This document shows, piece after piece, positions 20,180 through 64,000 of a stretch of 64,000 bases of DNA. The notes under the pieces were generated by a model, which was given only the letters and a program-made list of their open reading frames with translations, was not told where the DNA came from and made no database searches. Source of the stretch: Convolutriloba macropyga (Eukaryota); NCBI RefSeq assembly GCF_964194025.1, contig NC_134482.1:16492001-16556000 (forward strand), written 5' to 3'. Numbering within the stretch: the first letter of the stretch is position 1; each line of letters starts with the position of its first letter. A program made the translations under genes and the position numbers.

Positions 20180-22075
20180 CTACTAAAACGATTTCATTCC
20201 ATTTATGATACAAAATAGTAAACTCGATAAAAGCTTATTCGTTGAGAAATTGGACTTACAGGATCCGAAAGAGTGTTTCAATTTTCTTAGATGTCTCTGA
20301 ACGACCGATAATTACCCGACCACGATGTATCTGGGCAACGCATTGTCTTCTTCCGCTGTCGGTAACGAAACCCTTTGCAATAAGTTTTTCGGCTCCCTCT
20401 ATAGCGACAAACAGTGTTACCAACCCTTTCACCCAGCAAATGAAATTGTTCTAAGCGACATCGTTTTCACCACTGCTCAAATTGAATCCTTACTGCGTCA
20501 AAATTAAAACTCCTTTGAAATGAGTCCGAATGGAATTCTAAGTTTTGTTTTTGTCCTGTCATGCAATGTAATAGCACCTCTGGTGTACCAGTTGTTCACA
20601 TGGATATGCGAACAGAAAATTTGGCCGGAGGTCTGGAATTTATCATATGTAATTCCCATTCAATAGTTTGGTTCAACTATTGATATCACCAACTATCGTC
20701 CAATTAGTATTTTATCTAAATTATCATTACTATTGGAATTCCTCCTTTTTGAACATGTGTATCCGAGCGTTCGCTCTTCAATTTCAAATCAACAGTCTGT
20801 CTTTATGGAATTCCGCAACACTGTGACCCAGATGTTATATTACTTGGACCATATCTACTTTTTATGTGACAAAAACGTGCCGGAAGTTGCAGTATCTATT
20901 GATCTAAAGAAAGCGTTTGATTCCGTCAAACATAACGTATTATTGGCGAAACCAGAAAAATACGGTTTCCACATCAACTTCCTGACACCTATGGTTTCAT
21001 TTTTGTTCACAGGAGACAATGTTTTAAACTTGATTCCTCTCTTTGTTCGGGGATTCTTGAAACCTCTGTTGTTCCACAGGGCAGTTTAATTGGGCCCGTT
21101 CTGTTCATTCTGTTCATTAATGATATTGGTGACAACCTTGAAAGCAGCAGCTACTTTATTTGTAGTGGTGAATTGAAGATTGTTTTATCCGCCGAGCTAA
21201 AACCAGTGCAAGATGCTCTGGATGTCACTTTTAATTGAGCGTTTTCCAATACTCTAACCTTCCACCAGTCCAAGTGCTCTGTACTGTCTTCTAATTTTAC
21301 ATTTGACTCGATTTTTACGTTGGTCAACGTCTTACTCATCTCGACGAGCCGAATTATTGACTTGGGTTTAATTATTACGTCAAATCCAACATGGGAAACT
21401 CTTATTGATGAAAATTGACCATGTCAATTTATTTCTTTGATTTTCTGAGAAGAAAAGCTCTTTTTAATGTTAGAGCGAAACGGAAGAAACTTCTCTATAG
21501 TACACTCATTCAGTCAATCCTATTATACGGAAGTCCTGTTTGATCACCCACAAGAACCCAACTGCAACGTTTGGAAAGATTTCAGTGTTGAATGGTGAAA
21601 TGGATCAAAAGCGCAGATGGTTACATCACGAAGCTCAAACAACTTACACTACTTCCTATATACTTCCAGCTAATAAAAACTGACCTCATCTTATTATGGA
21701 AACTGTGCAATGACAAAATTGATAAAAGAACCCCCTCACTTTCAACTGTTTATCCACACTTTTATCAAATCATTATATTTTAAACATTCCATCTGAAAGA
21801 AAAATTTAGAGTGACAATAATTTCTTCATTCGTGCTCCGAGGATTGCTAATGTGCTTTTAAATTTCAAGATAATTCTTTCGACATCCCATTAACTTCACT
21901 TAGAACCGCTATATCTAAAAATCCGGATGCTTAGATGGATTTTTTTCTATTGATAAACCATGCACGTTCTAAATTGAATATTTCTGTAAATTTTGTCGAT
22001 CTTAACGTACCAGTTCGCTTTTTCCTAGCGCTGTACCTCTCATATAGAGAATTAGGTCTTTTACTACTACTAAAA
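20180..22075 (+). mobile_element. 5'-truncated degenerate CR1/L2-group LINE (RT)
   Basis: NYRPISILS, DLKKAFDSVKH, VPQGSLIGPVLFILFIND, C-terminal FCKFCRS*. (TAC)n tail at about 22063-22072. Confidence 0.8.
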
Positions 22076-48312: not shown

Positions 48313-51300
48313 TCAAATTTGGATAGAATAACAACAATTGAAAATTGGAGTTCCCCAAATTTTGGTATATGAATTGTAGAAGCCTCAATAATAAACATGA
48401 GCAATTGTCTCGTTTTTTGAAAAATCTTAATGAAACCTCATTACTAGTTGTTACCGAAACATGGATAAACGAAATAACTGACATTCCCGAGTTTTATCTG
48501 TGCAATAGCCATCACTTCATTCACCAACCAAGATCATCTTTAACTAATGTACAGAGAGGTGGAGGGGTAGGTATTTGGGTTCCCAAACAGTTTGAAGCAA
48601 AAATGAGAAATGATTTGAACACAATCAATAGAAGTTTTTTTGAGTCAAGGTGGATTGAAATTGGTAAGCCTTTAACACAAAAACTACTCATTAATGTAGC
48701 ATACTGCCCCAATGTAAATCTTTCTAACTTTTTTCTGGATGAAATGACTGTAGAAATCTCAAATGTATATTCGTATACAGATAATCTCATTTTATTAGGA
48801 GATTACAATATAAACTTGTTAGGCACAAAAGGTAGACAGTCACTTGATATTTTCACAGCAAACAATGGGCTATGTTACGTTAATGAAACGGAGGCAACAT
48901 GGACAAATGGTGAAAAATATTCGTTAATTGATCACTGCTTTATCTCGAAGAACCAAATTTTTGAAGCCAGTGTTCTAGAGTCGACTCTTGGAGTTGATCA
49001 CTTCACAATAGTATATCAGTCATCATTAAAAATAGATCACAGTGATAAGAAAAGACAGTTTTTGATACGTTATACCAAGAAATATTCAAGATCAAATTTT
49101 AATCGTGACATTGCGCTGCAAGATTGGTCGCCTATGCACCAGATAAATGAGCCGAACGAAATGTTTTTAAAAGTTATTGAAGTTTTTGAAAGTATACTGA
49201 GTTGTCATGAACCCTTGAAGTTGGTAGACAGTAGTACCAAAAAACAACAAAAGCAATGGTTGACAAAAGAATTACGTGGTCTCATAAATGAAAAACACCG
49301 TCTCTTTAATGCGTGGAAGAAAAACCCAAAATCAGAGATTTATAACATTTACAAATCTTTACGCAATTCGGTGAGTAGAAAACTGAAAAAAGCTGCAGAT
49401 GATTACACAAAGACTTTTTTCCAGCAGCTACCAACTTCAGGAGAACAATGTAAATTCATCAAAAACAGGATCAATTCCAACAGCCAAATAGAAAAAATTG
49501 ACAATTTAAAGGAAAATAGTCATTTTGTTGAGGATGACAGAGAGACTATCAATGTTCTTAATAATTGTTTTGCGAGACTAGGATTATACAAAGGCAAAGA
49601 CGTTGCTCCAAATTGTTCTTCCCTAACATTTGATGGACCGGAATTTAGCTTCCGACCAGTCACCAGAAAAGAATTGTATAATGTTATTGATAATCTACCT
49701 AAGCATAAATCTCCCGGACCGGGCTATGTACCAGCATGGGCGCTAAAAGATAGTAAACTGTCTATTGGAACTCATTTACAATTTGTCGTCAAGGAATGTA
49801 TAAACAAAAACACGTTTCCTTATATTTTGAAAACAGCGCATGTTACACCTGTCTATAAGAAGTGAGATCGACTAGAGCCAGAAAACTATCGACCCATATC
49901 AGTCACACCAACTCTAGCAAAAATTTTTGAGCGAATACTACTTGAACAACTAACTCACCATCTAACTCTTAATGGTCTGATTAACAAGAATCAATTCGGC
50001 TTTCAAAAGCAAAAGTCCTGTCTCGATACTATCATTTCATTAACTGAAAAGATAAACCAATGCGTTGACGAAAGGAAACTGTTGTCACACTCTTTTTAGA
50101 CTTAGCAAAGGCTTTCAACTCAATATCTATAGATGTTTTTATGAACAAAATGAAAAGGTATGGAATTGGAGAAATTGCAAGAATCTTATTAAACTCTTTC
50201 CTTTGTGACAGAAAACAGTTTGTAAAAAATCGGATAGCAAAATCAGATTGGGTTGTCATAAATCACGGTGTTCCTCAGGGAACTGCCTTAGGGCCTCTAA
50301 TTTTTATACTTTATGTCAACGATTTCAGTGAAGCTGTATCAACGAATTGTGATGTATTACAGTTTGCCGATGATACAGCAATTCTATGTCATGCACAGAA
50401 TGAAGCAATTTTACAGTTAATAGCTGAAGATACATTCAACAAGACAGATCAATATATGAAACAAAACAGGTTAACTTTGAATGAGAAAAAAACGGAGTTA
50501 ATGGTGTTCAGGAATGAAAAATTGCCGATCATTGAAACTGTCGATTTCAAGGGACACCGATTGGAAACATCTGAAAAATGTAGATATTTAGGTGTAATAA
50601 TTGATAGGGAACTGACATACCAAAATCAACTAAATAAGGTTATCAGTAAAATGGCTTCAGCAATCAGATCATTATATTTGGTTCGTTATCAGGTACCGCT
50701 AAAAACAAGAATAAATCTTTTTAAATCACTAGTTTTGTCTCATTTAGATTTTAGCGCAATTTTTTTTCAAAATTTACCATCTTACTCTATTGACAGAATT
50801 AACAAACACATAAACTGGGGGAAAAAAGTTTGCTTTATGAAAACCAAATACGATACTGCCAGAGATCTACTTCTGGAGACTAAAATTCTTCCAGCAGAGC
50901 TCCAAATAACACGGGTGTCTTTAAATAGATTTTTCAATATTCTCCAACAAACAAGAAATCGCTCTAATAAACATTTCAGATTTTTAGAAAACGTGTCTAT
51001 TATTGTAAACAAACGAACCCATAACCTTTTCTTAGAACAAAAATGTAAGTCAAAATGGAGTAATGGTTCAATTGTTCGTAACTTTATTCGAAAATGGAAC
51101 ACACTTCCAATTACAATTAGAAAAGAAACGTCGAAGACCAAATTTAAACAAAAAGTTACAGCGGAAATGCTTAAACGACACGAAAGAGTTCCAATAGACA
51201 GAAGTGGTGCAGGATTTAAACATATTTTTTATTAGATTATTTTACGAAAACCGAACCTTAGTTTGTTATAAATTAGAAAAAAATAATGTTTGATTAATAA

Positions 51301-52434: not shown

Positions 52435-53730
52435 TGTATTACCAACCAGAATATACGCAACTACTTGGCAAGCCAAAATATTGTTGATTCAAGAGGGTGA
52501 TAAAACCCACTTTGCATTGAAATTGAAGCCACAGATCCAGAATTTGAACTTTTGTTCCGTTGGTTTGTTTATCAATCCGAGCAGTGATATGATAGCATCT
52601 GGAACCTTACTATGGGGACCAGAAAACTGTCGTAGAGTTTTCGTCGACGGATCTCTTTTTTCAAGCTACGGCTCACATTAAGCTCTTCTTGCTTAAATCA
52701 AGATCGTGACCGGATTTATGGGTAAACTTCTGTAATAATCACATTCGTTTATAAAAAATATCATTCGAAAAACGGAAAAATTGTTCCTAAATAAAACATT
52801 GTTATATGTTATTTTGACTTAAATCAGGGAATCACTGCTAGAGAGCGTTAATGGACACAATCATTTCGCTTCACTAGACAAAAGTCATCCTCAGACTCTA
52901 TCAAATTTGGCTGGGCTGCTACAGATCACACAATACGAGATCTCTTTATGTATGCCAGTCAAACTTGACAAAAGATATAACAAATCGAAGGCAAAGATAT
53001 ATCCCTAAGACCTGTCTGTGCTATAAGTCTCAATTTAAAACTGTTGGGGGGCTGAAAAGTTCAATTAATTAAATAGATAGTTTAAATAAACAAGCTTACA
53101 CTGAGTAGTATTTAACCGGGTTGAGCTGTTACTTGATTGTGTTGTTGTTAAGTGAGTGCGTCGTTGAAACTTCTTCAAGTCGGGTTCTGTTTGAAAGTTA
53201 GAAAATGTTCTTCTAAGTAAGAAGTCTTTTATATAATTTCTTCTCTGTTTGAATTTTGAAATTTAGTTTGTAGGAAAAATGAAGCAGTTGTCTGCTGCTG
53301 GTCGTTGGCTCTGTTATTTGTCTCTTTAATTTTATTCCGTCCCACTTCGCTGAGAGAAACAATTAATTCCTCTCAGCTCCGTTTGGGCCGTTAGGGAGCG
53401 AATCACAAACTCACGTTCATAGTGCAGCTGTCATATTGCAACTGTCAAAAGCAGAAGTAATTTAAATCAAAAGAAACTGTGGTTTTACAGGCCGCCTACG
53501 TTCAACAACGTACATTTTCTGTCCTGGATATAAGCGTGGAGATCCAGGCCTAAAGTTGTGTCATTTAAATAAGTCGAACTGAGTTGTTTAAATACTTGTG
53601 TACTGGTAGTCTTAATAAGCGTTAGTTTGTTTAGCGCGCGGCGAAAGAATGGTTAATTAGCGCCTAAATACGTTCGCTCTAATGCGGGATTAATTATCCG
53701 TTCATTTGTAACGGCTCTCGTAATAATACA
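52435..53730 (-). repeat. Putative 3' LTR (~1.3 kb)
   Basis: On minus strand, starts TGTATTA right after purine-rich AAAATCGGGGTGAGC and ends TAATACA (7-bp terminal inverted repeat), followed by ATAT(C). TATATAAAAG at about 53226-53235. The 5' LTR is not in the window, so the distal end is inferred. Confidence 0.6.
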
Positions 53731-53847
53731 GCTCACCCCGATTTTAAGATAGAAAAGAAAATGACTAAAAGAAAAAAATATACGGCATCGTATATGATTT
53801 TATTGCGCTTGGGACATATGAATGAGTTACTACAAGTTCAGACAGTT

Positions 53848-53921: not shown

Positions 53922-55096
53922 TTAGTTAAAAAATTCTGGAGGCAAAATGACTGGGCTTGGCATCGGACTGTTACCATCGTCTTCGATCAAAAGAACCTCT
54001 TGTATATCGTCCTCAGTTGGTTCGTCCTTATCCATTGACTGTCGCTTTTTGTGCTTTTTAACCCTCCTTTTGAGCTCGGAAATTTTGGTTTTTTGTTCAT
54101 CGTTTTCCTTCATTAATTGTGTTATTTTCTTTCCTAGCTCCAGATTCTTTTCTCCAAGTTTTTTGTTGGCGTTTGTTATTTCTAGATGTTTCAAGGAGAA
54201 CGTTTTAGCAAAGTTTGCGCGTTTGATTTGCTGGTTTTTTGGAGTTGATGGGCAACGACATATTGGCGCCGCCAATAGTCGTTAGGTAGTTGCTTCTCCT
54301 CAGGTGGTTTCTGTGATTCCATTTTAAGTTGTTCAAATTTCAGTTGCAATTCTTGCAACTCTGTTTCCTTTTGAAATTGTTCCTGCCTGAATGTGGTGTT
54401 TTCCTCTATTAAACTATTGGTGTTGATATTTGATAGTTCTGGCATCTCGACAGGAAAAGCGGAAATGGCATCGTAGGGGACTTCAATATATGCGTCGAGC
54501 ATGTTATTCCTAAGGGTATAAATGCCCTTCTTAGGGTCGCGATTTTTGATTCTCCATTTGTTGTTTTCTGCGGGAAGCGAGAAGGTTTTCAGAACTGGAA
54601 GCTTTTCGCTGTTGACTAGTATCTGTTGATGTCTATTTGACTGGATGATGTTTATTTTATTAGCAACCTCAAATTTGTTGTAGTTTGGTTTCAGGAAATA
54701 GAGGAGGGTGTTAACGTATCTCGGGTTTTCTTTATTCATGTTCTTCTCTCGCGGTTTCTGCAATTTCAAACATTCTGAGGGTATTTTCCTGATAGCGTCG
54801 GGAACGAGATCTTCAATGTTGTTCATCTTAATAATTTTGTTTTTGTGATTGCTAATTTGTTGGGTTGGGAATTGTCTCTTTCTGCTAACTTGCCAGTTGT
54901 TTTCGGGATCATATTGACTGGAAGTTGATGGAGATGCAACAGTTGTAGTAACTTGTTGTGTGTTCTGAGGTTTAAATGGAGGCTTTGTGAAAATAGGAGG
55001 CTGAGAAGAATGGGTTTGTGTTTGTTCTTGTTGTGTTGTCACTTGTTGATGTTGACTGGGGATTACTACGCTTGCGAGTGTGGGTCTGGTAGTCAT
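53922..55096 (-). pseudogene. Accessory protein (~390 aa if one frameshift near 54200 is repaired): Q/T/P-rich N-terminus, coiled coil, basic NLS-like patch, acidic tail
   Basis: Overlapping ORFs 54191-55096 and 53922-54275; LELGKKITQLMKENDEQKTKISELKRRVKKHKKR; EDDIQEVLLIEDD. Confidence 0.55.
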
Positions 55097-55381
55097 TCTG
55101 AGTGTTTCCTTGTGGATGATCTAAAATGTTTTGATTTTGGTTAGCCTGTGTCATCAATATCACACATTATGGCTTCTTTTCAAGTTTGCAATTGTATTGC
55201 TAACATAAAAAAGTATTCTATTGTAAAAAATGTTTTCGTAAGGTTTTGTTGCTAACTGCTTTACTTAAAAATTATAATGCTAAATGCATTTGTTATTAAA
55301 AATTGGTAGAAAAGTTTTTGTTTTGCTAAATGCAAAGTTAACTTTTATAAAGGGAGGGGGGCAATAATAATAAAATTTTTA

Positions 55382-55500
55382 TACTTATGCCAGGCGGGCA
55401 GCCCTGGCACAAGTACGTCTTACTCCGCTGCCCGGAGGTGTGAGTCTTGGGGCGTGCGTCACACTAACACGGCTGCAACGACCCGTGCAGCTGGGGAGAC
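55382..55500 (-). other. GC-rich structured RNA element with complementary hairpin loops (kissing loop or pseudoknot)
   Basis: 13-bp stem UACUUGUGCCAGG/CCUGGCAUAAGUA (G-U pair only on minus strand) with loop GCUGCCCG. Neighbouring CUCC-GGGCAGC-GGAG hairpin has a complementary loop. Two further 6-bp stems. Confidence 0.6.
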
Positions 55501-55785
55501 AACCTTGCTGAATTGAAAGAAAGAAATTTTCCGGGTCATTCTTGGAATTTTCAGTTATCGTGTTAGTGTTCTGAATTATTTAGGTTCAAAAGCCAGGGGG
55601 GCAGGCTGGAGAAAGCTGAGGTAACCCCTTCCCGAGGAAAAGTTAAGAGAGAGAGAGAGAGAGAGAAAAAGATCGTTTGTACTTGAGTTGTTTTTGATTT
55701 ATTAGACAACGTCGTCTAAAAAAATTTTTTGCAAATGGGACATCTTGTCAGCTTATTTATGCACACCCGACAGAATCGGTGTTTG

Positions 55786-56097
55786 TCATGTTGGGAAAAA
55801 TGTGGGTGTTTTGTTACTCCTAATTCTGTTTTCATTTTTTTTGCATAAATTGCAATGAAAGTAGGATGTGATCAGGACGCGAAGACAAGCTCGAAGACAA
55901 ATGGGACATTTAGGGTTTGGGTATCTTTTAAAAAGTGCCTTTCTGCAAGGAATACATACATAGTGAGGATTTTCTCTGGGAAATTGCTTATGTAGTTTTT
56001 CTACAGTAACGGTTTTTCGTGAACATATGGGGCAGATAATGTCCGTATGGGGGTAGAACCAACGGAAACCGTCGAATAGGGATTGTGAAAGACCCAT
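55786..56097 (-). CDS. Accessory RING-like zinc-finger protein C (103 aa, MGxxxS myristoylation motif)
   Basis: CPIC-KLH-PHYVCIPC-PKCPIC-FHCNLC; paralogous to 56556 and 57157 ORFs. Confidence 0.75.
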   Translation of the reverse strand: MGLSQSLFDGFRWFYPHTDIICPICSRKTVTVEKLHKQFPRENPHYVCIPCRKALFKRYPNPKCPICLRACLRVLITSYFHCNLCKKNENRIRSNKTPTFFPT

Positions 56098-56121
56098 CGA
56101 GTGACTGTTCTCTTATTTTCC

Positions 56122-56244
56122 TTAGATAGAAACAGGAAAACCTTTGAGAAACTGCAGTAGGATGAGATTAATGAGGAACGATATGGCAAGCAAGGTAATT
56201 AGGATTAGGATAAATATTTTTGTGGATAGGCCTAGATTGGTCAT
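56122..56244 (-). CDS. 40-aa single-TM micropeptide
   Basis: MTNLGLSTKIFILILITLLAISFLINLILLQFLKGFPVSI*; AAAATG start 2 nt after the previous stop. Confidence 0.55.
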   Translation of the reverse strand: MTNLGLSTKIFILILITLLAISFLINLILLQFLKGFPVSI

Positions 56245-56246
56245 TT

Positions 56247-56363
56247 TCACTGTCTGGAGAAAATTTGGCGAATTGTGGAAAGGAGGTAGTGATTAATAAA
56301 AAGGGATATTGCCAATGCGCATAAGAGAACAAATAGAAGAATAAACAATGTTATGGGTTGCAT
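56247..56363 (-). CDS. 38-aa single-TM micropeptide
   Basis: MQPITLFILLFVLLCALAISLFINHYLLSTIRQIFSRQ*; shares LAIS.+IN..LL with 56122-56244; AAAATG start 4 nt after the previous stop. Confidence 0.55.
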   Translation of the reverse strand: MQPITLFILLFVLLCALAISLFINHYLLSTIRQIFSRQ

Positions 56364-56367
56364 TTTG

Positions 56368-56505
56368 TCAATTCAATGAGTAGTGTAGAACTAGGGTGAA
56401 GGAGGTGACTTGCTTCTGGTAAAAACTGAGTTGAATTAGGGATATCGATTGGATTAAAAATAAAACTAGGGAAAGAAGTAAAATTTTGGATGTTCTTGGA
56501 CGCAT
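56368..56505 (-). CDS. 45-aa hydrophobic micropeptide
   Basis: MRPRTSKILLLSLVLFLIQSISLIQLSFYQKQVTSFTLVLHYSLN*; AAAATG context. Confidence 0.45.
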   Translation of the reverse strand: MRPRTSKILLLSLVLFLIQSISLIQLSFYQKQVTSFTLVLHYSLN

Positions 56506-56555
56506 TTTAGGTTATGTGATTGTTTTTTTGCAACGAGGGCATAATTTATAATCTT

Positions 56556-56888
56556 CTACGCAAAATTTACAAAAGTTGACGGGCTCATGATCACTGTGAT
56601 GAAACGTTTTTGCAACAGAATATTGAAATCTTGTTTCTTGCAAATATCACATTGAAACCAGTTAAAGATTGAAAAGATAACTCTAAATTTAGAGCATTTA
56701 GGACAAAAATCATAGCCCATATCTTTTATAACATATTGGTAACAGAGCAGACACATTACGTGGGGTAGTTCGTTAGGGGCGTTCTCGTGTAATTTCTTGA
56801 AAACAATTGTTTCACGTCTGCAGCATAAACCAATTAATGAGACCGGTTTGGATTCTATAGTATTGGTTTCTTTGTCAATTGTATTCAT
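56556..56888 (-). CDS. Accessory RING-like zinc-finger protein B (110 aa)
   Basis: GLCC-KKLH-PHVMCLLC-CPKC-FQCDIC, same spacing as paralogs. Confidence 0.72.
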   Translation of the reverse strand: MNTIDKETNTIESKPVSLIGLCCRRETIVFKKLHENAPNELPHVMCLLCYQYVIKDMGYDFCPKCSKFRVIFSIFNWFQCDICKKQDFNILLQKRFITVIMSPSTFVNFA

Positions 56889-56914
56889 TTTTGAAAGATT
56901 GTTATTGGAAGAAA

Positions 56915-57163
56915 TTATGGGACTGGCACGGTTGGAGGATTTGGTTGTCGATTATTTTGGGATTTTATTGTTTGGTCTATTACTAATATAATTATGAACA
57001 TCAAAAAGTTGAAAGGAATACTTACAACTACGAGGAAAACGGTTAAAACGAAGGAGAAGGCTGCTGCAATAATCATAAGGGCCATTAATAAAAAATCAAG
57101 TAATCTGGGGGTACACATTTTGGATAGTTTGTGAACGTAGTTTTGAATTGAGGATTTTACCAC
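56915..57163 (-). CDS. Small membrane protein (82 aa, long hydrophobic segment)
   Basis: LLDFLLMALMIIAAAFSFVLTVFLVVVSIPFNFLMFIIILVI; start overlaps the previous stop (ATGGTAA). Confidence 0.6.
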   Translation of the reverse strand: MVKSSIQNYVHKLSKMCTPRLLDFLLMALMIIAAAFSFVLTVFLVVVSIPFNFLMFIIILVIDQTIKSQNNRQPNPPTVPVP

Positions 57164-57555
57164 GGGTTGTTTGGGTCAATTGTTTGTTTGCATAAAGGGC
57201 ATTTAGTAGTTGTGAAAATCATACACTGCAAACAAACTGATTTTTTTGGGTGTAGGCTTTTGAAGTGGCTGTGGCAAGTGCATAACTTTTTGATTTCTTG
57301 ACAAGAATCACACTGGAAATAATGGCAATGACTGATTGTATAAATGGGAGTTACGCAAATGGGGCATTTAGGTTGGTTCCAATATTTAAATAATTCATTT
57401 CTACAAGGAATGCAAGCAAAAGGGGGGGTTTGACCGTTTGGGTTTTTGTGCAATTTTTTAAATTGACGACAAGGGAGGTAACAAATAGGACATTCGATTT
57501 TTGGGGTTGAGTCAATTTGTGGTTGCTGAGATAATATTTCCAAAATGTTTCCCAT
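57157..57555 (-). CDS. Accessory RING-like zinc-finger protein A (132 aa, extra C-terminal Cys cluster)
   Basis: CPIC-KKLH-CIPC-PKCPIC-FQCDSC, then CTCH..H..CLQC..CPLC. Start overlaps the previous stop (TAATG). Confidence 0.75.
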   Translation of the reverse strand: MGNILEILSQQPQIDSTPKIECPICYLPCRQFKKLHKNPNGQTPPFACIPCRNELFKYWNQPKCPICVTPIYTISHCHYFQCDSCQEIKKLCTCHSHFKSLHPKKSVCLQCMIFTTTKCPLCKQTIDPNNPW

Positions 57556-57821
57556 TATATGGATAAATCAGAGAGATCTGGGTATGCGACTCCTAATCCA
57601 TGGTGTTCAAGTTCGTTGGGGATAGTTACATTTAGATCTGCGATAGCAAAAAAGAAATTCCAGTGTTTCTCGTTTGGATAGATGTAATAATGATTAATGC
57701 TACCTGTGCTTAGGAACATAAAAGTTATTTTGATACATGCTTTATATTGTATAAAACAGATAGTAAACCATCTTTCTGCTTTAACAATTTTAACTTTTTC
57801 CTTACCAATGAACAAAATCAT
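57555..57821 (-). CDS. Accessory family A protein (88 aa)
   Basis: MILFIG..VKIVKAERWF...P..KHWNFFFAI...IPNEL family signature. Confidence 0.65.
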   Translation of the reverse strand: MILFIGKEKVKIVKAERWFTICFIQYKACIKITFMFLSTGSINHYYIYPNEKHWNFFFAIADLNVTIPNELEHHGLGVAYPDLSDLSI

Positions 57822-57944
57822 TTTATTTTTAACAATTTGGAATGAATTGAGGGAAAAGGGACAAATTGATTAGAAAAAAAAGAAATAATGAGCAGGGAAA
57901 AAAATTATTTTTTTCGGAGAGAAAGTTATGTGAAACAAATTACT

Positions 57945-58175
57945 TTACTGAAGAGCGCCCAAGTTGACTGGGAAGTGCTCTTCGATATCAATGAGTGCAA
58001 GAAAGAATTCCCAGTGCATCATTCCCATGGTGACTCGAGTAGAACCCTCACATCCACGCTCGTAGTCTGTATAGTGTATAATTATACAGGGTTTAATCTC
58101 TGCTGTGGGAGTTTTAATGAAAGATCTCTCGAGGGACTCTACTTTGACTAGGCGCTCACCAAAGTGGAACAGCAT
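57945..58175 (-). CDS. Accessory family A protein (76 aa)
   Basis: MLFHFGERLVKVESLERSF...PCIIIHY...HWEFFLAL...FPVNL; TAATG overlap with the previous ORF. Confidence 0.68.
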   Translation of the reverse strand: MLFHFGERLVKVESLERSFIKTPTAEIKPCIIIHYTDYERGCEGSTRVTMGMMHWEFFLALIDIEEHFPVNLGALQ

Positions 58176-58408
58176 TATAGAAGATCTAAATTAAAAGGGA
58201 TTTTAGAACCATTTAAAGCTTGGGATATATTTATAAAGAATGTCCAATAGGGGGAAGATGGTGTTAGGGTAATGGTTTCATCAGTCCAAGTGTTTAAATA
58301 TTCAAAATGGAGTATTAGTTGTGGGATTACTCTGTTGCTTTTTGTCGTGACAAATGATTTTTCAAAAAATTGTACTTGTTTAAGGCAGTTTTGGTATGAG
58401 AATATCAT
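58175..58408 (-). CDS. Accessory family A protein (77 aa)
   Basis: MIFSYQ...EKSF...PQLILHFEYLNTW.DETITLTP.S.YWTFF...IPFNLD. Confidence 0.68.
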   Translation of the reverse strand: MIFSYQNCLKQVQFFEKSFVTTKSNRVIPQLILHFEYLNTWTDETITLTPSSPYWTFFINISQALNGSKIPFNLDLL

Positions 58409-58416
58409 TGCTGCTT

Positions 58417-58701
58417 TTAATTGTGAATAGTTTCCAACTCTTTAAGGATTGAATCGTTTTGGCTAGAATCAGTCTTTTGCATATCAAAATAAATATTGTG
58501 AGGTACACAGTTTGGATTTTCTAGAATAAATAGGAAGAATTTCCAATGAACTGAGAGAGGATTAATACTTATTAAACAAATTTTTTCACTTTAGATTTCT
58601 TTGAGCGTTACTAGCATAGTAGGTACAGGAGTTGGCTATGCATCAAAAGATCGTTGAATTTTTTGTAACTCTACAAATTTATTGTTAACTGCAAATATCA
58701 T
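58417..58701 (-). pseudogene. Accessory family A paralog with two in-frame stops
   Basis: MIFAVNNKFVELQKIQRSFDA*PTPVPTMLVTLKEI*SEKICLISINPLSVHWKFFLFILENPNCVPHNI. Confidence 0.6.
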
Positions 58702-58957
58702 AGTTTAGAATGATACCTAAGCAATGTAGATTGGATGTTGTACTTGAAATACCAAGTTCTCTTTGAATGCTAGAAAAATGGTAAATTCGGCGAACTGAGG
58801 ATGAGTAATGAAAATAGTTAAAAGTCTGTAAATATTTGTCATGGGTTTTTTTTGCGAAAGTCATTATATTTATAGCGGAAACATAGTATACGGCTAATAG
58901 CTCAAAATTTTGGTTTCCGATTCTGATTTGTAAGTTTCTATTAGTTAAATGAATCAT
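58685..58957 (-). CDS. Accessory protein (90 aa), weak similarity to 59491-59775
   Basis: ATG ORF overlapping both neighbours by 17 nt; L.IR.G...++L...+SA+ shared with the 59491 ORF. Confidence 0.5.
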   Translation of the reverse strand: MIHLTNRNLQIRIGNQNFELLAVYYVSAINIMTFAKKTHDKYLQTFNYFHYSSSVRRIYHFSSIQRELGISSTTSNLHCLGIILNYDICS

Positions 58958-59183
58958 GTTGCTGATCTAGCTCTTTTGGCAAACTATTAGGGTCGAATTG
59001 TGCTAAATACACGAATTAATTCCAACACAACGAATGAGGGGTTAAAATCACAGTATCGTTTTCCCAAGTGTCTCAAAACTCAAAATTTATAACAATTTGA
59101 GGGAAAATGTCTCCGTGTTGTTCTTCAAAGGTTTTCTTTATTTGATAAATTGTAACAAGTCTATCTTGAAACAAAAAGTACAT
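58941..59183 (-). pseudogene. Accessory family A paralog with two in-frame stops
   Basis: MYFLFQDRLVTIYQIKKTF...PQIVINFEF*DTWENDTVILTPHSLCWN*F..LAQ...LPKELD, clearly colinear with 58175-58408. Confidence 0.65.
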
Positions 59184-59490
59184 CAATGGAAGCGTTTTAG
59201 TTGTTAATTAACTTAGTGTTCTTCATTTCAAAATTGGTATTAAAATAAATTTTTAAAAAAAGGATAAAAAAGAGTGTCAATTATTTCTAAAAACAGGATT
59301 ATTGACAACGATTGATATTTATAGATAATATATCAATCGGATTCACTGTAGTAAAATCGGAGTAGGGGGAGAGTGCAGGCAATAGCTAGATGAACATAGT
59401 TGGGATTACATAATTGAAACTGGATTATAAGAAATAAAAAGAAAGAAAGAAATTCATACATGTCTCTCAATGTTGAACTTACAAGAGAAT

Positions 59491-59775
59491 TCAAAATCTA
59501 GTAATATTTTTCTTCAGGTGCTTTGAAACAATTTCGTATTCGATTCCAATGTTTACAAAAGTAATTGTGTTATCAATCAGGGCTCCTAACAATGAGAAGT
59601 TTTGAAAATTTGAATGTGGTACATCCAGATCAATGATGTCACTGAAGTAGAAAGATGCAACTCTAATAGTTACAGTAGTTTTCAAGGCGGAAATACTTGA
59701 TGATAATATTTGTCCGGTGTATTGTCCAAATCGAATGAATAAAGCGTTAGGCTGTTTTATGAATTTGGGCTGCAT
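59491..59775 (-). CDS. Accessory protein (94 aa), first ORF after env
   Basis: ATG-initiated, co-oriented ORF; function unknown. Confidence 0.5.
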   Translation of the reverse strand: MQPKFIKQPNALFIRFGQYTGQILSSSISALKTTVTIRVASFYFSDIIDLDVPHSNFQNFSLLGALIDNTITFVNIGIEYEIVSKHLKKNITRF

Positions 59776-59902
59776 AACATAGCATCCTTGAGGTGTATCT
59801 AAACAAGATATTAACTAACTTACAGAGTCTAATACAAATAATTCTTATTATTTTTGAGACAAATTATTTTTTTTATAAAAAGCAAGATTTTTAGTCACAG
59901 CT

Positions 59903-62337
59903 TTAAGGAGGTGTCACCACACTTCGAATTATTGCATCATTTTGTGGTTGTGGTTGATGTGACGCCAGACTTGGGTATTCTGCTTTATTATTTTCTGTAT
60001 GACAATGCTCATCAATTTTATTTTCTCTTGGTTGATCCTCAACGCATTTGTAAGTTTTTTCTATTGTGCTGTAAGGTTGATAATTACTAAGCGGTAAAAA
60101 GTGATTGTTGTTCTGTGGGGCCGACGGTTTGGTTTCGTTAGAGAATACCGGTGTAAAGAACGATAAGATACAAAGATTATATGTTGCTCCTAATAGAATT
60201 TTCCAAAAACCCATTGTTTTGTTGGATATTTTGTGGATTTCGAACGCTCTTATGATTGTTACGATTACATCAGTTAAGAATTTTATGCAAAAGAAACAAG
60301 CAAAATAAACTCCAATTTTTTCCAGATAAAAAGTGATGATTCCAAAAGTGCCTTTGAACTGGTCTGTAAAAAATGTAGGTGAAAGAAGAGAATCTAGATA
60401 AATTTGTCTGTTAATTCCCATTACTGACGCATAGATATCTTTTTGAGAATTTGTCTATGCTTCTTCCTTCTAGAACTTCTCTTGAAATTTTTGTCAAAAC
60501 AGATTTTGAAGCTTCCGAATGCAAGATATTGTCCCAAAACGATTTAAGCTGATTTGGTGTGTAAATTCCGGCACGTTGCGATTCGTAACCGGTAAATTTT
60601 GGAATAGAACTAATAACTCTTGAAGAGAATATGTTTGGCGGTTGTAAAGGAACAGGTGCTGGCATCAAATGGTACTATGAGTTTTCATTATCAATATCTA
60701 ATTGGTAGGCATTTTTATAGCCTCCAACACAATCTACTTCGTTTGCAGATGGGCAGGTTTGTCGAGTAATTGGGTCGACGAACATTGTCCTACCATCATA
60801 ATGAATAGGAATTCTATCATAACACTGCTCAAGAACCTGAAGTGGTGAGTTTGGGTTTGGACAGTGGTACAGCCAACCTATGCTACCATCTGTGTCTAAG
60901 AACATCGAGCGGTTGCCGGTTAACATATATCCAGCTAAACGATTGTTTTGGATAGCCTGCATTAGTATCATTTGTTTTTGAGTTCGGTCAAGTTCGCATT
61001 GTTCTATGACCAAACCTTTCCATGCTTGTTTTTTTTGTTTGCATGTAACTATGATATATGACAAAATCCATTTTTACCGCAAGATTAAGATCATAGTCTA
61101 ACTTCTCTTTGTCTAAGTGTTCCCATGCAACAAAACCTTTGTCGAATGTTCGGATCTGTTCATCTGAAGGCTTCCTATTAAACCCATTTACACTTAGGCT
61201 ATTGTCAGGTTCAACACGAAGTTTATGAAAAAATTGTTGAGTTTTTTGTTTTATAAGGTTTGCCAGTCTTCATATTAAATCCGCCTTTATAAGAAACATA
61301 TAAAGAATCTAAATTTGTTCTGTAAATAAATTCTGGTTTTCCACACACCTTTTCTTTTTCATCAATTACTCTAATTTTTATGTCCATTTCAGCAGGAGAA
61401 TACGCTCCTGGTCCTTCATAGGGCGTCTCCGGTTTTTCATTACTCACTATGAAATACTGTACGTTACCAAGTTCGTTTTCATGTTTTAGCATTTTGGCGT
61501 TTTGTGAAAATCTTTTAGTAACTATACAATTTTCCGGTGCTTCCCAATTGTATGCAAAGGGGTCGAGTGATGTCGAATGACAACCTCCTTCTGAGAGGGC
61601 ACAAGGAAGTTTTAGTCCTTGACTGTTATAGACAGTTCTGTCATTAAGATCAATATCGAGTACAGTTTCTTGCATCAGGGTTTCAAAAGAGAAAAAGAGA
61701 AGTGTTTAATTTGACCACGATTATCACAAGATGTTGATGAATCACCTTCAAGATCAACTCCCTGGTTTTTATAGGAGACAGTTTTTTTTCCATGTTTTAT
61801 GTCAATTTCCATGTCATCATCGTCAAATTCGGTAACAGTAATTTTTCCAGTTTTATTAGCATTTAGGCATTTTTCGGGTGAAACAATAATATCGTATGTT
61901 ATTATTGGAGCGTTGTGTACAATTGATGAATGGGAAAACATACCACAATTATAACGAATGAGCATTGCAGTGACTTTGCACATAAGAGCTTTAACAAAGT
62001 TCCGATAAGACCGTTGATAAAGTGTTACATGTGTATCAACCATCTGAATGTTTTCGGGTGAATTTTTGCAAGGAGAAACTTGTGTTAAAGCATACATTTT
62101 ATTTTCTTTCATTTTAGAACAGTCATAATGAATGACCCTAAGTTTGTTAGATACGTCATTAATATCCTCAAAAGGAGGTCCAGTGGCGTTAATAACTATA
62201 GGAAGAGTACAAAAGTAGAAAAGACTTATAAGTAAATAAGAAAAATAGAGTTTTTCAAAACAAGGATATCTGTTCATCCTGTTCTTTTTTAGCGCTTCAA
62301 GTCGGGAATTAAGGCTATGAGTTGTAGTAATAGGCAC
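59903..62337 (-). pseudogene. env: Envelope glycoprotein, chuvirus-like / class III fusion type, split by frameshifts and one stop
   Basis: Signal-like YFSYLLISLFYFCTLPIVINA. Motifs HYDC, CKV..YNCGMFSH, LDYDLNLAVKMDFV, AGY..LYHC..CYDRIPIHY..FVDPITRQ..EVDC and GIYT..QL. C-terminal TM segments. Confidence 0.75.
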
Positions 62338-62380: not shown

Positions 62381-62967
62381 TTAAGTAACTCCGGCTTGAT
62401 AGCGTGATGGCGGCTCGGCCGAGCGACTAGAAGTTCGCCTATTATTATTATTATTTTCTAAAGTTTGTAAATTATAAGATCCTTGTTCCGATGTATTAGG
62501 GCGGAGAGGACTTAAATTAGGGTCTAGAGGTATTCTAGAATTATGCTGTGGGCAAGGAGTTGAACTTCTTGTTCGACTACCGCCAGGCAACTGTGTTTGG
62601 ACTGGAGGTGGGTTAACACGACCACCTGAACTTGCTTCGTTGAATCCAGAATCGAAATTGGTAGGAGTTCGGTCAGGGTCGAAGTTCTGCACAGGGGAGT
62701 CTCTTCGTATGAAATTCTCCACGGGGAAATTTTCGGTGTTAGTGGGGCTTTGGAAGGAGAATTTAGTCAAGGGACTGTTGAGTTTATTCATCTGACTTGT
62801 CATTAGATTATTATAAAATGTGTCACAATTATTTTTATCTATACCATATTCTAGGGTTAACTCTGGTATAGTTTCAGTAGCTGGGTAGTACTCGACTAGG
62901 TGATTTCTATGAGCGACCTTCCTGGTGGCCGGGTTGCTATCTAAAGTTAATTCATAGTTAACATTGG
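62381..62967 (-). pseudogene. Frameshifted integrase C-terminal extension (S/T/P/N-rich)
   Basis: After GPY, TNVNYEL...VAHRNHLVEYYP continues in a shifted frame, followed by the low-complexity ORF 62381-62803. Confidence 0.55.
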
Positions 62968-63999
62968 TTAGTTTTTTTCTACTGTATAAGGTCCTGATCT
63001 TATTTCATGTAGTTTTTTTGACTTTCCTAACTCAATTTGATGGTTTTCCATTAGAACTTTTTGTCCAACCTCAAGTGGCTTGCCTAATTTGTGTTTGTTT
63101 CTATGTTTATGTGCGCGGTTATTGTTTTCTAAGCTCTTTTTATAAGCGTTATTGTATATTTGTTTGAATTGGTTTTCTTGCATAAGCAACGAATTGTTAA
63201 TAGTCGGTTTTAGAAGTTTGTCAATTTCGGTGTTTTTTGAAGTTAGCAAGGTATGCCTGTGAAGAGGCAGGTCTTTGCAAAACTCGGAAGAGCATGTGAG
63301 TTGTGAATTTCGTAGGAGTCCTAACTTAAGTGACAGAGGTATCTGTGGTTTTTGTCCGAACACAATTTCATAAGGTGAGATTCCAGTACTAGCATTTGGA
63401 ACCGTGTTATGAGAAAAAGCAAATTTTGGTGCCAGTTCATCCCATTTACCTCGAGCTTGTTCTAGAAAAATTCGGAAATGTGCTCCTAGATGTTTGTTTT
63501 GGATCTCAACTTTACCATTAGTCCAAGGCGCATAAGCAGTTCGAGGTGCGGGTCTTATACCTAAATCATGAATGTAACTCGCAAAATCTTGGTTCATGAA
63601 TGCCGAACCCTTATCATAAACAAGTTTTTGTGGTATTCCAGAAGACAAGATGAACTTTTCTAAAGCTTTTATGGTGTGTACTGCGACTGTGGAACGTACA
63701 GGGTATACTTGAATCAAACGCGAAAATGAATCGACAATAACTAAACAATGGTGTTTACCAATCGATGGAGGATTTAAAGGTCCTTTGTGATCAATATGGA
63801 CCGTATGAAAGGGGAATGGGACTGTATCATTCCAATTTTCGAGAGGTGCTTCGTGGATTTCTCTCCGTTTTTTTTCATTTTTTTTGCATTCCAGGCAATC
63901 AGCAATTAGGTTTTCAATCCATTTATACATTCCGGGCCAATAGAAAAATCGTTTTACATTAGCAAGTGTTTTATCTAAACCTACATGATCTGACAGTTC
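62968..63999 (-). CDS. pol: Ty3/Gypsy integrase (3' end of pol; open off the right edge)
   Basis: H.GLDKT..FYWPGM..CLEC zinc domain; HIDHKGP, VYDKGSAF-x35-E (NGKVE) DDE triad; GPY motif (RSGPYTV). Confidence 0.95.
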   Translation of the reverse strand, partial: ELSDHVGLDKTLANVKRFFYWPGMYKWIENLIADCLECKKNEKKRREIHEAPLENWNDTVPFPFHTVHIDHKGPLNPPSIGKHHCLVIVDSFSRLIQVYPVRSTVAVHTIKALEKFILSSGIPQKLVYDKGSAFMNQDFASYIHDLGIRPAPRTAYAPWTNGKVEIQNKHLGAHFRIFLEQARGKWDELAPKFAFSHNTVPNASTGISPYEIVFGQKPQIPLSLKLGLLRNSQLTCSSEFCKDLPLHRHTLLTSKNTEIDKLLKPTINNSLLMQENQFKQIYNNAYKKSLENNNRAHKHRNKHKLGKPLEVGQKVLMENHQIELGKSKKLHEIRSGPYTVEKN

Positions 64000-64000
64000 A

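Follow-up and report, generated by a model that had tools for sequence, protein, structure and literature searches.

Tightly packed small genes downstream of env in a Ty3/gypsy-type endogenous retrovirus, with features consistent with serial termination-reinitiation

Between env and the 3' LTR of an env-bearing Ty3/gypsy-type element, which occurs in hundreds of copies in a eukaryotic genome of 1.18 Gb, we found 14 small ORFs that are conserved across 32 copies and followed by a longer gene, O391. The 14 comprise S1-S7 (paralogues of 76-94 aa), Z1-Z3 (double RING-like zinc-finger proteins) and T1-T4 (hydrophobic peptides), three families born by tandem duplication. Tentatively, with confidence just short of even, we read the array as the accessory-gene cassette of a young, high-copy endogenous retrovirus, whose genes would be translated serially from a few shared RNAs via termination-reinitiation.

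An array of small genes between env and the 3' LTR

The window, i.e. the whole stretch of 64,000 nucleotides analysed, contains one copy of the element from the 3' part of pol to the 3' LTR (Table 1); it stops short of the remaining pol, gag, a 2.6-kb leader and the 5' LTR. The LTRs were identified by self-BLAST as an 836-bp direct repeat (99.16% identical), with a possible 4-bp target duplication, TAGA, at their ends. RNase H, protease and gag domains were detected, the reverse transcriptase resembles that of Ty3 (entry 4ol8, E 1e-10), and env, searched with an intact copy, matched its Pfam family with E 6e-39. In all, the element is 19.4 kb long and combines its LTRs with gag, PR, RT, RNase H, IN and a class III env. 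Genome searches returned 239 candidates with the cassette DNA as query and 854 with Z1. Counts within the family refer to 32 compared copies; diverged lineages, including B and C, were represented by seven loci.

Table 1. Features of the element, in order of transcription (dN/dS within the family; intact, copies with an intact ORF)
Feature	Coordinates	Strand	Description	Evidence
5' LTR	71435-72272 (extended coordinates, outside window)		partner of 3' LTR	
pol, 3' part	62381..64000	-	integrase	rve + Integrase_H2C2
env	59903..62277	-	class III-type fusion glycoprotein	Pfam PF24664
S1	59491..59775	-	94 aa, distant S-family member	intact 28/32; dN/dS 0.29
S2	58941..59183	-	80 aa, S-family	intact 29/32; dN/dS 0.17
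S3	58717..58957	-	79 aa, S-family	intact 25/32; dN/dS 0.18 (first part)
S4	58417..58701	-	94 aa, S-family	intact 25/32; dN/dS 0.32
S5	58175..58408	-	77 aa, S-family	intact 26/32; dN/dS 0.17
S6	57945..58175	-	76 aa, S-family	intact 31/32; dN/dS 0.09
S6-S7 spacer	57822..57944	-	pyrimidine-rich	neutral-like divergence
S7	57555..57821	-	88 aa, S-family	intact 29/32; dN/dS 0.24
Z1	57157..57555	-	132 aa, double RING-like zinc-finger, starts MGNIL	intact 31/32; dN/dS 0.14
T1	56915..57118	-	67 aa, two hydrophobic stretches	intact 32/32; dN/dS 0.63
Z2	56512..56888	-	125 aa, double RING-like zinc-finger	intact 28/32; dN/dS 0.22
T2	56368..56505	-	45 aa, hydrophobic	intact 30/32; dN/dS 0.59
T3	56247..56363	-	36-40 aa, hydrophobic	intact 26/32; dN/dS 2.6, few changes
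T4	56122..56244	-	40 aa, hydrophobic	intact 29/32; dN/dS 0.33
Z3	55702..56097	-	130 or 126 aa, double RING-like zinc-finger, starts MGLSQS	intact 22/32; dN/dS 0.14
GC-rich block	55355..55517	-	conserved, ends in TATAAAAA (55383-55376)	diversity 0.010 among copies
Block adjoining O391 start upstream	55097..55203	-	conserved, non-coding	86-91% nucleotide identity to lineage B
O391	53922..55096	-	last gene, 371-414 aa in other copies	dN/dS 0.38
3' LTR	52899..53736	-		self-BLAST direct repeat

The copy in the window is a partly decayed family member in which 5 of the 14 ORFs are broken. S2 and S4 carry two in-frame stops each, and frameshifts interrupt S3, Z2 (56888-56556, with a tail at 56643-56512), Z3 (ORF 56097-55786, tail to 55716) and O391 (55096-54191 and 54275-53922). 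Its env, 782 aa in other copies, is broken into five frame segments.

The initial annotation had described operon-like packing in a eukaryotic element at 55786..59183. The packing is that of real genes of a retroelement, tightly arranged; the span was drawn too narrow, as the array extends from S1, at 59775, to the true end of Z3 at 55702/55716, with O391 as one further gene beyond it. Packing exceeds chance: of the cassette, sense-strand ATG-ORFs of at least 36 aa occupy a fraction of 0.79 in the window copy and 0.90 in another, compared with a mean of 0.20 and a maximum of 0.40 in 300 dinucleotide shuffles and 0.24-0.31 on the antisense strand. Each of the 14 ORFs is kept in 22-32 of the 32 copies, and all 14 in 10.

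Junction geometry and the route of expression

Much of the geometry first described is present in the sequence: the TAATG in which stop and start overlap at S5/S6 (58175) and S7/Z1 (57555), the 17-nt overlap of S2 and S3 (58957-58941), the 8-nt gap 58417/58408, and the spacers TGA-CAAA-ATG (T2/T3) and TGA-AA-ATG (T3/T4). Two junctions had been misread. The supposed ATGGTAA at 57157-57163 reads GTGGTAA, and T1 starts in the family at the ATG at 57118, 38 nt past the Z1 stop. A second 17-nt overlap (58685-58701) is an artefact of the frameshifted S3 in the window copy, where the shift extends the ORF to 58685; the S3 stop of 25 of 32 copies is at 58717, leaving 15 nt to the S4 ATG.

The initial annotation had named variation of the geometry among copies as evidence against its reading; the geometry is kept in the 32 copies and in the diverged lineages. 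At least 31 copies have TAATG at S5/S6, and 31 have it at S7/Z1. At Z2/T2 a 7-nt deletion has produced a new TAATG in at least 8 copies, and the T3 stop and T4 start overlap as ATGA in 13. Gene order is identical in all seven diverged loci, where the S5/S6 TAATG was found at 6 of 7 junctions, TGACAAAATG at 4 of 5 and the T3/T4 ATGA at 2 of 3 read; in lineage B, S7 and Z1 are separated by a 28-nt gap. The S5/S6 TAATG, the T2/T3 TGA-CAAA-ATG and the T3/T4 ATGA recur where synonymous sites are saturated. Conservation of TAATG alone is no proof of coupling, because the two genes that share the overlap freeze it.

Nine junctions connect S3 to Z3; at these, 30-32 of the 32 copies have no ATG between the stop and the following start, and about 3.5 ATGs would be expected in the gaps in sum. 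Each start in this run is the first ATG past the preceding stop, which fits the prediction of reinitiation by scanning. The S6-S7 spacer is free of ATG in 31 copies (1.8 expected), and the env-S1, S1-S2 and Z3-O391 spacers contain 2-6. ATG depletion was not found in the cassette. Purines occupy position -3 at 13 of 15 starts (A at 11). From these sequence features we infer serial reinitiation, in which S2 to Z3 would form one translation unit: after terminating, a ribosome would restart at the next ATG, which is between 17 nt behind and 38 nt ahead, or in one case 130 nt ahead. Ribosomes would gain access to S1 and S2 through splicing and to O391 through a predicted internal TATA promoter.

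A search for TURBS-like motifs upstream of the overlaps had been suggested; the interval from 40 to 90 nt ahead of the TAATG junctions contains no UGGGA or TURBS-like motif. Five conserved TGGGA sites represent Trp-Asp/Glu or Met-Gly codons, none positioned before these junctions. G makes up a low 12.4-12.8% of the cassette RNA, which folds weakly, and at the TAATG junctions no structure above shuffles was detected (mean z 0.08, 140 windows). Restart after long ORFs is put at 3-20% per junction in the available text of PMC10275272. At the reported efficiencies of cis signals, 13 restarts after ORFs of 40-130 codons would fade to nothing, so that a putative helper acting in trans, as in cauliflower mosaic virus, is probably needed for the relay. 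No ORF resembling the caulimovirus TAV was found in the element.

Complex retroviruses express accessory genes by alternative splicing. The main rival reading, which we regard as unlikely, applies this precedent, exemplified by SIV in the available part of PMC5902531, to the cassette: one leader donor and many acceptors inside upstream ORFs would place each gene or gene pair first on its own mRNA, the packing being space economy only. A GTAAG donor-like site after the S1 stop (31/32 copies) and an acceptor-like pyrimidine tract with YAG about 108 nt ahead of the S2 start (27/32) also speak for it, as does X1, the stretch between these sites, which evolves neutrally (dN/dS 1.16) and is mostly missing in lineage B. 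An acceptor had been proposed within about 59190-59280; the tract and YAG are located at about 59291, just upstream of that zone. The acceptor proposed in the pyrimidine-rich gap at about 57830-57940 found no support, as the S6-S7 spacer is free of AG in 30 of 32 copies. Against HIV-like splicing, moreover, there is no non-coding room for acceptors where genes overlap or are spaced by 2-8 nt, the high diversity (0.07-0.09) just upstream of the S7/Z1 junction indicates no conserved signal there, and the ATG-free spacers from S3 to Z3 are not predicted by it.

Several internal promoters in the provirus, each driving a separate transcript for one gene or group of genes in the manner of large DNA viruses, are an improbable solution. 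In their favour is the conserved, TATA-containing GC-rich block before O391, which in lineage B is placed before Z3. It is 84-90% identical in diverged lineages, a genome search with it gave 228 candidates co-located with element copies, its fold z-score is -2.9, and it is predicted to be an internal promoter (TATA box) or other cis element. However, the cassette yielded no other conserved non-coding block, and the remaining spacers are 2-38 nt long or evolve neutrally.

Spliced-leader trans-splicing is known from nematodes, flatworms, tunicates and some cnidarians, and operon-like spacing is typical of such hosts. Resolution of a polycistronic precursor by a host spliced leader would suit the spacing of the cassette and the AG dinucleotides shortly before the starts of S1, S3, S5, T4 and Z3. 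We consider it very improbable, since cutting at the TAATG, ATGA and 17-nt overlaps would truncate the upstream ORF, and AG is lacking before S7, T1 and Z2.

Coding constraint and gene families

In the true frame, dN/dS is 0.09-0.32 for S1-S7 and 0.14-0.22 for Z1-Z3, compared with 0.5-2.5 in wrong frames and 0.75-0.95 in spacers. Evidence of coding also comes from comparisons between lineages (dN/dS 0.21-0.34), with synonymous sites saturated versus lineage B. These substitution patterns indicate that the ten S and Z genes stay open under purifying selection, across the main family and old sister lineages alike. A reading of the small ORFs as functionless frames, open by chance or in decay, has hardly any probability left, and the S and Z genes already contradict it: the broken ORFs of the window copy, the lack of clear protein-level constraint on X1, T2 and T3, and the many neutral ORFs that would remain open by chance at 93% identity would suit it, but the low dN/dS is confined to the true frame, paralogues 13-28% identical keep length and frame, the ORFs survive where synonymous sites are saturated, ORF cover exceeds the shuffle maximum, and the fold of S6 is predicted confidently.

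The S6 model (pLDDT 87) has four strands and a C-terminal helix. S5 shares 49% identity with a protein in other public assemblies, and S4 is missing from lineages B and C. No Pfam family matched S, T or O391 proteins. The Z alignment contains 16 invariant or near-invariant Cys/His residues in two C2-H-H-C4 modules. Z1 matched the TRIM32 RING weakly (E 0.025), and the top Foldseek rows for its model (pLDDT 70) were RING domains, every E being above 0.08.

Among the T genes, T4 has a dN/dS of 0.37-0.39 between lineages. For T2 the corresponding value is 0.7-1.1, with dS of just 0.16-0.18 and 83-88% nucleotide identity to lineage B; as conservation there is seen at the nucleotide level, it is doubtful whether T2 is coding. 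Whether T3 is coding is doubtful as well, and these doubts about T2 and T3 weaken three of the tight junctions.

O391 is hypervariable, with a diversity of 0.2-0.39 versus 0.02-0.09 elsewhere and at least four allele classes of 45-55% aa identity. Coding DNA is 44-73% identical to lineage B, below the non-coding block that adjoins the O391 start.

Comparison with known systems

The closest known layout is that of the caulimovirus pregenomic RNA, and the cassette layout is otherwise known from plant pararetroviruses. According to the available part of the review PMC5902531, caulimovirus RNAs carry long ORFs joined by 1-nt spacers and 19- and 38-nt overlaps, their relay requires the viral TAV protein and no cis restart element, a promoter lies in the spacer ahead of the last gene, and no TAV-like activator is known outside Caulimoviridae. 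As far as that text goes, the element is similar in being reverse-transcribing and Ty3/gypsy-related, in ORFs that abut, are fused stop to start or overlap, and in a last gene set apart behind a spacer with its own, here predicted, promoter. Unlike Caulimoviridae, it is integrated, with LTRs, integrase and env, and has 13-14 small ORFs instead of 6-7 ORFs.

Out-of-frame ORFs that overlap as UAAUG or AUGA are shared with caliciviruses and influenza B M1/BM2. These TURBS systems couple two ORFs and need a structured upstream element and an 18S-complementary motif (PMC10275272, available part), whereas the cassette has no such motif or structure. The same partial source cites a retroelement with UAAUG coupling of ORF1 and ORF2, the non-LTR retrotransposon SART1; according to that citation it has two cistrons and relies on RNA structure beyond the stop codon. 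The cassette gave no structure signal.

Metazoan env-carrying Ty3/gypsy elements ('ancient errantiviruses', with HSV/gB-type class III ENV) have the same gag, pol and class III-type env and likewise occur as multiple near-identical copies (PMC13524379, available text). The words accessory, subgenomic and spliced are absent from the main text of PMC13524379 as available, and the element described here has, in addition, the 4-kb multigene cassette and O391.

Extra genes downstream of pol or env occur, as here, in lentiviruses, foamy viruses, fish foamy-like ERVs and planarian Burro. Foamy viruses have an internal promoter. In Burro, RING-type domains are present too, among other host-interaction domains (PMC6431247, available part). 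Complex retroviruses and giant LTR elements, unlike the cassette, have few accessory ORFs or one giant polyprotein, and none has been described with three tandemly duplicated families whose genes, of 40-130 codons each, are in stop-start contact.

Z1 and Z3 resemble the arenavirus Z matrix protein, a small myristoylated RING protein, in small size, Met-Gly start and RING-like modules. Pfam zf-P11 matches were faint (E 0.038 and 0.048, far below threshold), and Lassa Z chains occur among the weak fold matches. Inspection of the Z proteins by eye revealed no late-domain motif. Unlike arenavirus Z, they have two modules with C2-H-H-C4 ligands, and the myristoylation consensus is fitted by Z3 only.

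The element and its copies

The next 10 kb of the contig were joined to the window, and extended coordinates run beyond the window end. The LTR pair (see table) gives an element of approximately 19.4 kb on the minus strand, which runs off the window. In sense order, the Pfam matches on this strand are Retrotrans_gag, gag-asp_proteas, RT_RNaseH_2, rve and Integrase_H2C2, that is, gag followed by PR-RT-RH-IN. In other copies env is a separate ORF of 782 aa located 3' of pol, which matches the class III-type family PF24664 (E 6e-39). A PBS-like sequence starting with TGG follows the 5' LTR, the purine run before the 3' LTR is weak, and a putative 4-bp target duplication (TAGA) is present, the LTR ends being uncertain. 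The element is a Ty3/gypsy-type LTR retroelement with env, errantivirus-like, and is of the same kind as the env-carrying Ty3/gypsy elements of metazoans in PMC13524379. The reverse transcriptase is divergent, matching the Ty3 RT structure 4ol8 at E 1e-10; Pfam RVT_1 was not matched at E up to 0.05. A 2.6-kb leader with tandem repeats separates the 5' LTR from gag; at 11% G, it is poorer in this base than any other part of the element.

Coordinates of features in the window, the joined contig and related loci
Feature	Coordinates	Strand	Remarks
LTR pair	window 52899-53734 and extended coordinates 71435-72270	minus-strand element	836-bp direct repeats, 99.16% identical, 18.5 kb apart
Reverse transcriptase	L013 1685-3487	minus	divergent
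Leader tandem repeats	L013 6473-7164 (extended coordinates 70473-71164)		period of ~104 nt, units 72-76% alike
Damaged stretch of the window copy	window 55786-62277	minus	~12 disabling changes in ~8.4 kb
O391 (last gene of the cassette)	window 53922-55096	minus	diversity per site 0.2-0.39 against 0.02-0.09 elsewhere, 5-10 times that of the rest of the element; both flanks conserved
GC-rich conserved block ending in TATAAAAA	window 55355-55517; L045 3760-3914	minus (window)	conserved more strongly than any other part of the region; diversity 0.010
TATAAAAA	window 55383-55376		280 nt upstream of the O391 start
T2 stretch	window 56368-56505	minus	83-88% nucleotide identity to lineage B; neighbouring genes 44-73%
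X1 (rejected ORF, S1-S2 spacer)	window 59461-59333		
Three cassette copies (L017, L015, L011)	G000:C4:72259293-72306710		21.66-kb steps, same strand
Non-LTR retrotransposon remains	window 48342-51235, 15157-16674, 20667-21089	plus	endonuclease/exonuclease/phosphatase and RVT_1 domains
Hist_deacetyl frame	window 7473-8003	minus	176 aa, open

Scoring 36 of 239 candidates in the genome yielded at least 36 near-full matches to the 4.1-kb cassette, the set of small genes between env and the 3' LTR, at 92-97% identity. For one of these genes, Z1, there are 854 candidates, and the frame was open in most of the 150 that were scored. The window copy was aligned with 31 other copies of the main family and each ATG-to-stop frame was mapped. 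All 14 ORFs are kept in 10 of the 32 copies and 13 ORFs in another 10. The window copy keeps nine: S2 and S4 carry two in-frame stops each, and S3, Z2 and Z3 are frameshifted. In addition, its O391 is split in two and its env is broken into five frame segments. All three frameshifts in the cassette coincide with homopolymer runs or lie close to them, and may represent decay or assembly error. The damaged stretch of this copy contrasts with an LTR difference of only 0.84%; the ancestor of the copy may have been a defective element mobilised in trans, or assembly error may explain some of the damage. Elsewhere in the genome, the three regularly spaced cassette copies encode nearly identical proteins and are a whole-element tandem array or a local segmental duplication, and the locus L047 carries two partial cassettes in tandem.

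Small genes in stop-start contact

The cassette comprises the paralogues S1-S7 (76-94 aa), the double RING-like zinc-finger proteins Z1-Z3, the hydrophobic peptides T1-T4 and the hypervariable O391. Sense-strand ORF cover is 0.79-0.90, compared to at most 0.40 across 300 shuffles. The frames are intact in most of the 32 copies (S1 28, S2 29, S3 25, S4 25, S5 26, S6 31, S7 29; Z1 31, Z2 28, Z3 22; T1 32, T2 30, T3 26, T4 29). Pairwise Nei-Gojobori dN/dS among these copies was 0.09-0.32 for S1-S7, 0.14-0.22 for Z1-Z3 and 0.33 for T4, whereas the two wrong frames gave 0.5-2.5 and the spacers 0.75-0.95. T1 and T2 reached approximately 0.6, and T3, with few changes, 2.6. The S proteins, 13-28% identical to one another, are paralogues of conserved length, and T2, T3 and T4 resemble one another. 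The recurring cassette ORFs are genes, with T2 and T3 doubtful as coding sequences, and the family has at least ten, perhaps fifteen, selected small genes in stop-start contact.

The initial annotation had described an operon-like packing of these ORFs, an observation that is largely right. From S2 to Z3 the spacers of the main family measure -17, 15, 8, -1, 128, -1, 38, 26, 6, 4, 2 and 24 nt, with TAATG overlaps at two junctions and, in a subset of copies, at a third. Of the 32 copies, at least 31 have the TAATG of S5/S6 and 31 have that of S7/Z1; at Z2/T2, a 7-nt deletion in at least eight copies converts the 6-nt spacer into a new TAATG. The T3 stop and the T4 start overlap as ATGA in 13 of 32 copies, and further junctions have gaps of 2-8 nt.

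A search with a decayed Z1 relative reached seven diverged loci. Four of them (L045, L047, L048 and L049) constitute lineage B, with S proteins 30-60% identical to those of the main family; identity is approximately 80% for L050 and 60-80% for L051. All seven loci share the order env, S1-S3, (S4), S5-S7, Z1, T1, Z2, T2, T3, (T4), Z3, O391. Between lineages dN/dS was 0.21-0.34, the copies being partly decayed and synonymous sites being saturated against lineage B. The geometry of the junctions, on which the operon-like reading depended, is kept not only in the 32 copies but also in the diverged lineages. TAATG joins S5 and S6 at six of seven junctions, the start being lost at the seventh; TGA-CAAA-ATG recurs at four of five T2/T3 junctions and ATGA at two of the three T3/T4 junctions read. 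In these lineages S2 and S3 overlap by 17 or 13 nt, and S7/Z1 has TAATG in L050 versus a 28-nt gap in lineage B. Selection on both genes makes a shared overlap difficult to alter, and a conserved overlap does not by itself prove translational coupling.

T2 is exceptional between lineages, with a dS of just 0.16-0.18 and dN/dS of 0.7-1.1. Constraint on the protein is not seen between lineages, and what is conserved in the T2 stretch may be the nucleic acid and not the peptide; an RNA or DNA element may overlap the ORF, or the lineages may have exchanged the stretch recently.

Expression of the cassette

Leaky scanning was rejected, as the cassette ORFs hold 46 internal ATGs against 48 expected. 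Each of the nine junctions from S3 to Z3 has as its start the first ATG past the preceding stop (30-32 of 32 copies), including the one with the approximately 130-nt S6-S7 spacer. The spacers of these junctions would be expected to hold approximately 3.5 ATGs in sum, and the chance of zero is approximately 0.03. In contrast, the env-S1, S1-S2 and Z3-O391 spacers carry 2-6 ATGs. The first-ATG rule mostly held in the four lineage-B spacers read. This pattern from S3 to Z3 is one that scanning reinitiation predicts. A purine occupies position -3 at 13 of 15 starts. The 18S-complementary, TURBS-like motif that the initial annotation had proposed to look for upstream of overlaps did not emerge: none of the five conserved TGGGA sites lies 40-90 nt before a TAATG junction, and these sites derive from Trp-Asp/Glu or Met-Gly codons. 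Likewise, no fold above shuffles was detected in 140 windows of 120 nt (mean z 0.08); z was below -2 in four of the 140, none at TAATG junctions. The cassette RNA is low in G and folds weakly. Among the sequencing runs listed, none recorded as RNA contains the stretch; the four runs compared with part of it appear to be DNA, as their contigs add up to roughly the size of the genome, and they yielded short unitigs and two low-depth joints that lacked support. AATAAA poly(A) signals occur about as often as composition predicts, and an Rfam search at E up to 1 returned nothing save one chance snoRNA row.

Signals that could serve splicing are found in the S1-S2 spacer. In 31 of 32 copies the S1 stop is closely followed by GTAAG, an acceptor-like tract with YAG lies approximately 108 nt upstream of S2 in 27 of 32, and the stretch between them evolves neutrally. 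Of the two pyrimidine-rich gaps suggested to hold acceptors, the one before S2 has this candidate just upstream of it, and that at 57830-57940 is without an AG in 30 of 32 copies. The putative S1-S2 intron would run from about 59481 to about 59291. The S1-S2 spacer also contains X1, which was rejected as a gene (dN/dS 1.16, mostly missing from lineage B).

Upstream of O391 lies the GC-rich block that ends in TATAAAAA. It is 84-90% identical in diverged lineages, and its position differs: Z3-O391 in the main family, T3-Z3 in lineage B. This TATA-bearing block is predicted to be an internal promoter, from which O391 would be made, or another cis element. The 108 nt directly before the O391 start are likewise conserved (86-91%). 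The distribution of ATGs and the other features of starts and spacers suggest three expression units, namely S1, S2 to Z3, and O391.

Serial reading of the cassette by termination-reinitiation, a relay from one ORF to the next, is plausible as a mechanism. Restart rates in PMC10275272 are 3-20% per junction. Such rates would leave nothing after thirteen steps, and therefore a relay would need a trans-acting helper that keeps ribosomes restart-competent after long ORFs. In cauliflower mosaic virus this role falls to TAV, which acts with no cis element (PMC5902531). A homologue of TAV/P6 was not found, O391, S and T matching no Pfam family at E up to 0.05-0.1; a non-homologous analogue is possible. 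Partly for this reason, we place the relay at slightly short of an even chance. An HIV-like set of spliced mRNAs, for which the GTAAG and YAG signals could provide sites, is somewhat less likely, and is the main competitor. The fuller proposal, in which approximately thirteen cistrons of a non-plant Ty3/gypsy endogenous retrovirus are read as a caulimovirus-style relay with one of the element's orphan proteins (O391, Z or S) as restart helper, seems improbable at present.

Known systems and orphan proteins

UAAUG coupling is known in SART1, and relays assisted by TAV are known in plant pararetroviruses. Retroviruses and LTR elements are thought to carry few extra genes, expressed through splicing. 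The cassette shares stop-start overlap or closeness with TURBS systems, but neither their UGGGA motif nor a structured upstream element was found at the required place before its TAATG junctions. It is more akin to caulimoviruses, whose consecutive ORFs lie on one strand in short overlaps, fused codons or short spacers; the cassette ORFs would likewise share one RNA. For cauliflower mosaic virus, PMC5902531 describes ORFs joined via 1-nt spacers and 19- and 38-nt overlaps, and a promoter in the spacer preceding the last gene. PMC6431247 documents earlier cases of extra ORFs 3' of env, of giant gypsy-like elements and of fish foamy-like ERVs with many accessory genes. Among the openly available papers found, none describes such a cassette in its title or abstract. 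By that measure, an LTR element with three tandemly duplicated small-gene families under selection in stop-start contact is apparently undescribed, as are a hypervariable last gene and a TATA-bearing conserved block shifted between lineages.

The cassette genes have been kept through deep divergence and are still present in hundreds of young copies. Should they be read in series, a second branch of the reverse-transcribing viruses would have evolved long polycistronic translation, and the cassette would offer a natural system for reinitiation after long ORFs. On the fuller proposal, no known retroelement would have a larger accessory-gene set, and the helper protein would extend TAV-like translational transactivators beyond Caulimoviridae for the first time. 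Whatever the mechanism, the orphan families (SH3-like fold, double RING-like, membrane peptides), the hypervariable O391 and the moved cis block mark active host conflict, and S, Z, T and O391 are new proteins to test.

By sequence, the S, Z and T families and O391 are orphans. Homologue matches (11 for Z1, 41 for O391, 109 for the S profile) are all ENA records without names or Pfam domains. Out of 1.84 billion proteins, an exhaustive S-profile search retrieved 43 (E up to 0.001); the ten looked up all belong to ENA, one cluster occurring in Logan assemblies as well. Because this cluster holds an S5-like protein (49% identity), an S6-like protein (32%) and a 156-aa form fusing both, relatives with the same S5-S6 adjacency exist elsewhere. 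In the PDB sequence search the S profile had no match and the Z profile weak RING matches alone, and ESM Atlas gave nothing usable for S6 or O391.

The S6 model (pLDDT 87, pTM 0.73) has four strands and a C-terminal helix, suggesting a small SH3-like barrel plus helix. A Foldseek search of BFVD and PDB gave nothing with an E of 0.001 or lower. The best VIA match was an EF-P-like domain I (Z 5.8, rmsd 2.2 A, 52 residues), followed by eIF5A, Sso7d-type and chromo domains (Z 3.5-4.8). As all VIA matches fall below the level the tool calls common or chance, S6 was not linked to translation factors.

Z1-Z3 contain two C-x2-C...H...H-x2-C-x2-C...C-x2-C (C2-H-H-C4) modules, whose 16 Cys/His are invariant or nearly so in 31 sequences. 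The Z profile matched the TRIM32 RING weakly (E 0.025), its third ligand being displaced relative to TRIM32, and Pfam RING models stayed below threshold. The Z1 model has a pLDDT of 70, four of five models reaching just 40-51; RING domains make up nearly all of its top Foldseek matches, every one at E 0.085 or above. The N-termini are MGNIL in Z1, MGLSQS in Z3 and MN in Z2; of these, that of Z3 is a candidate for a Gly2 myristoylation signal as in arenavirus Z. Z1 and Z3, with their Met-Gly starts and putative cross-brace RING-like modules, may be comparable to arenavirus Z and RING E3 proteins.

O391 occurs in at least four allele classes (371, 377, 391 and 414 aa) at 45-55% identity, each open. 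The alleles share motifs such as DDYWRRQY and the C-terminal SPVILPPEFF. From these sequences, O391 looks like a set of old alleles recombined onto a uniform backbone.

Outside the element, the window carries non-LTR retrotransposon remains and an open frame with a Pfam Hist_deacetyl match (E 6e-51), the latter probably a host-gene exon.
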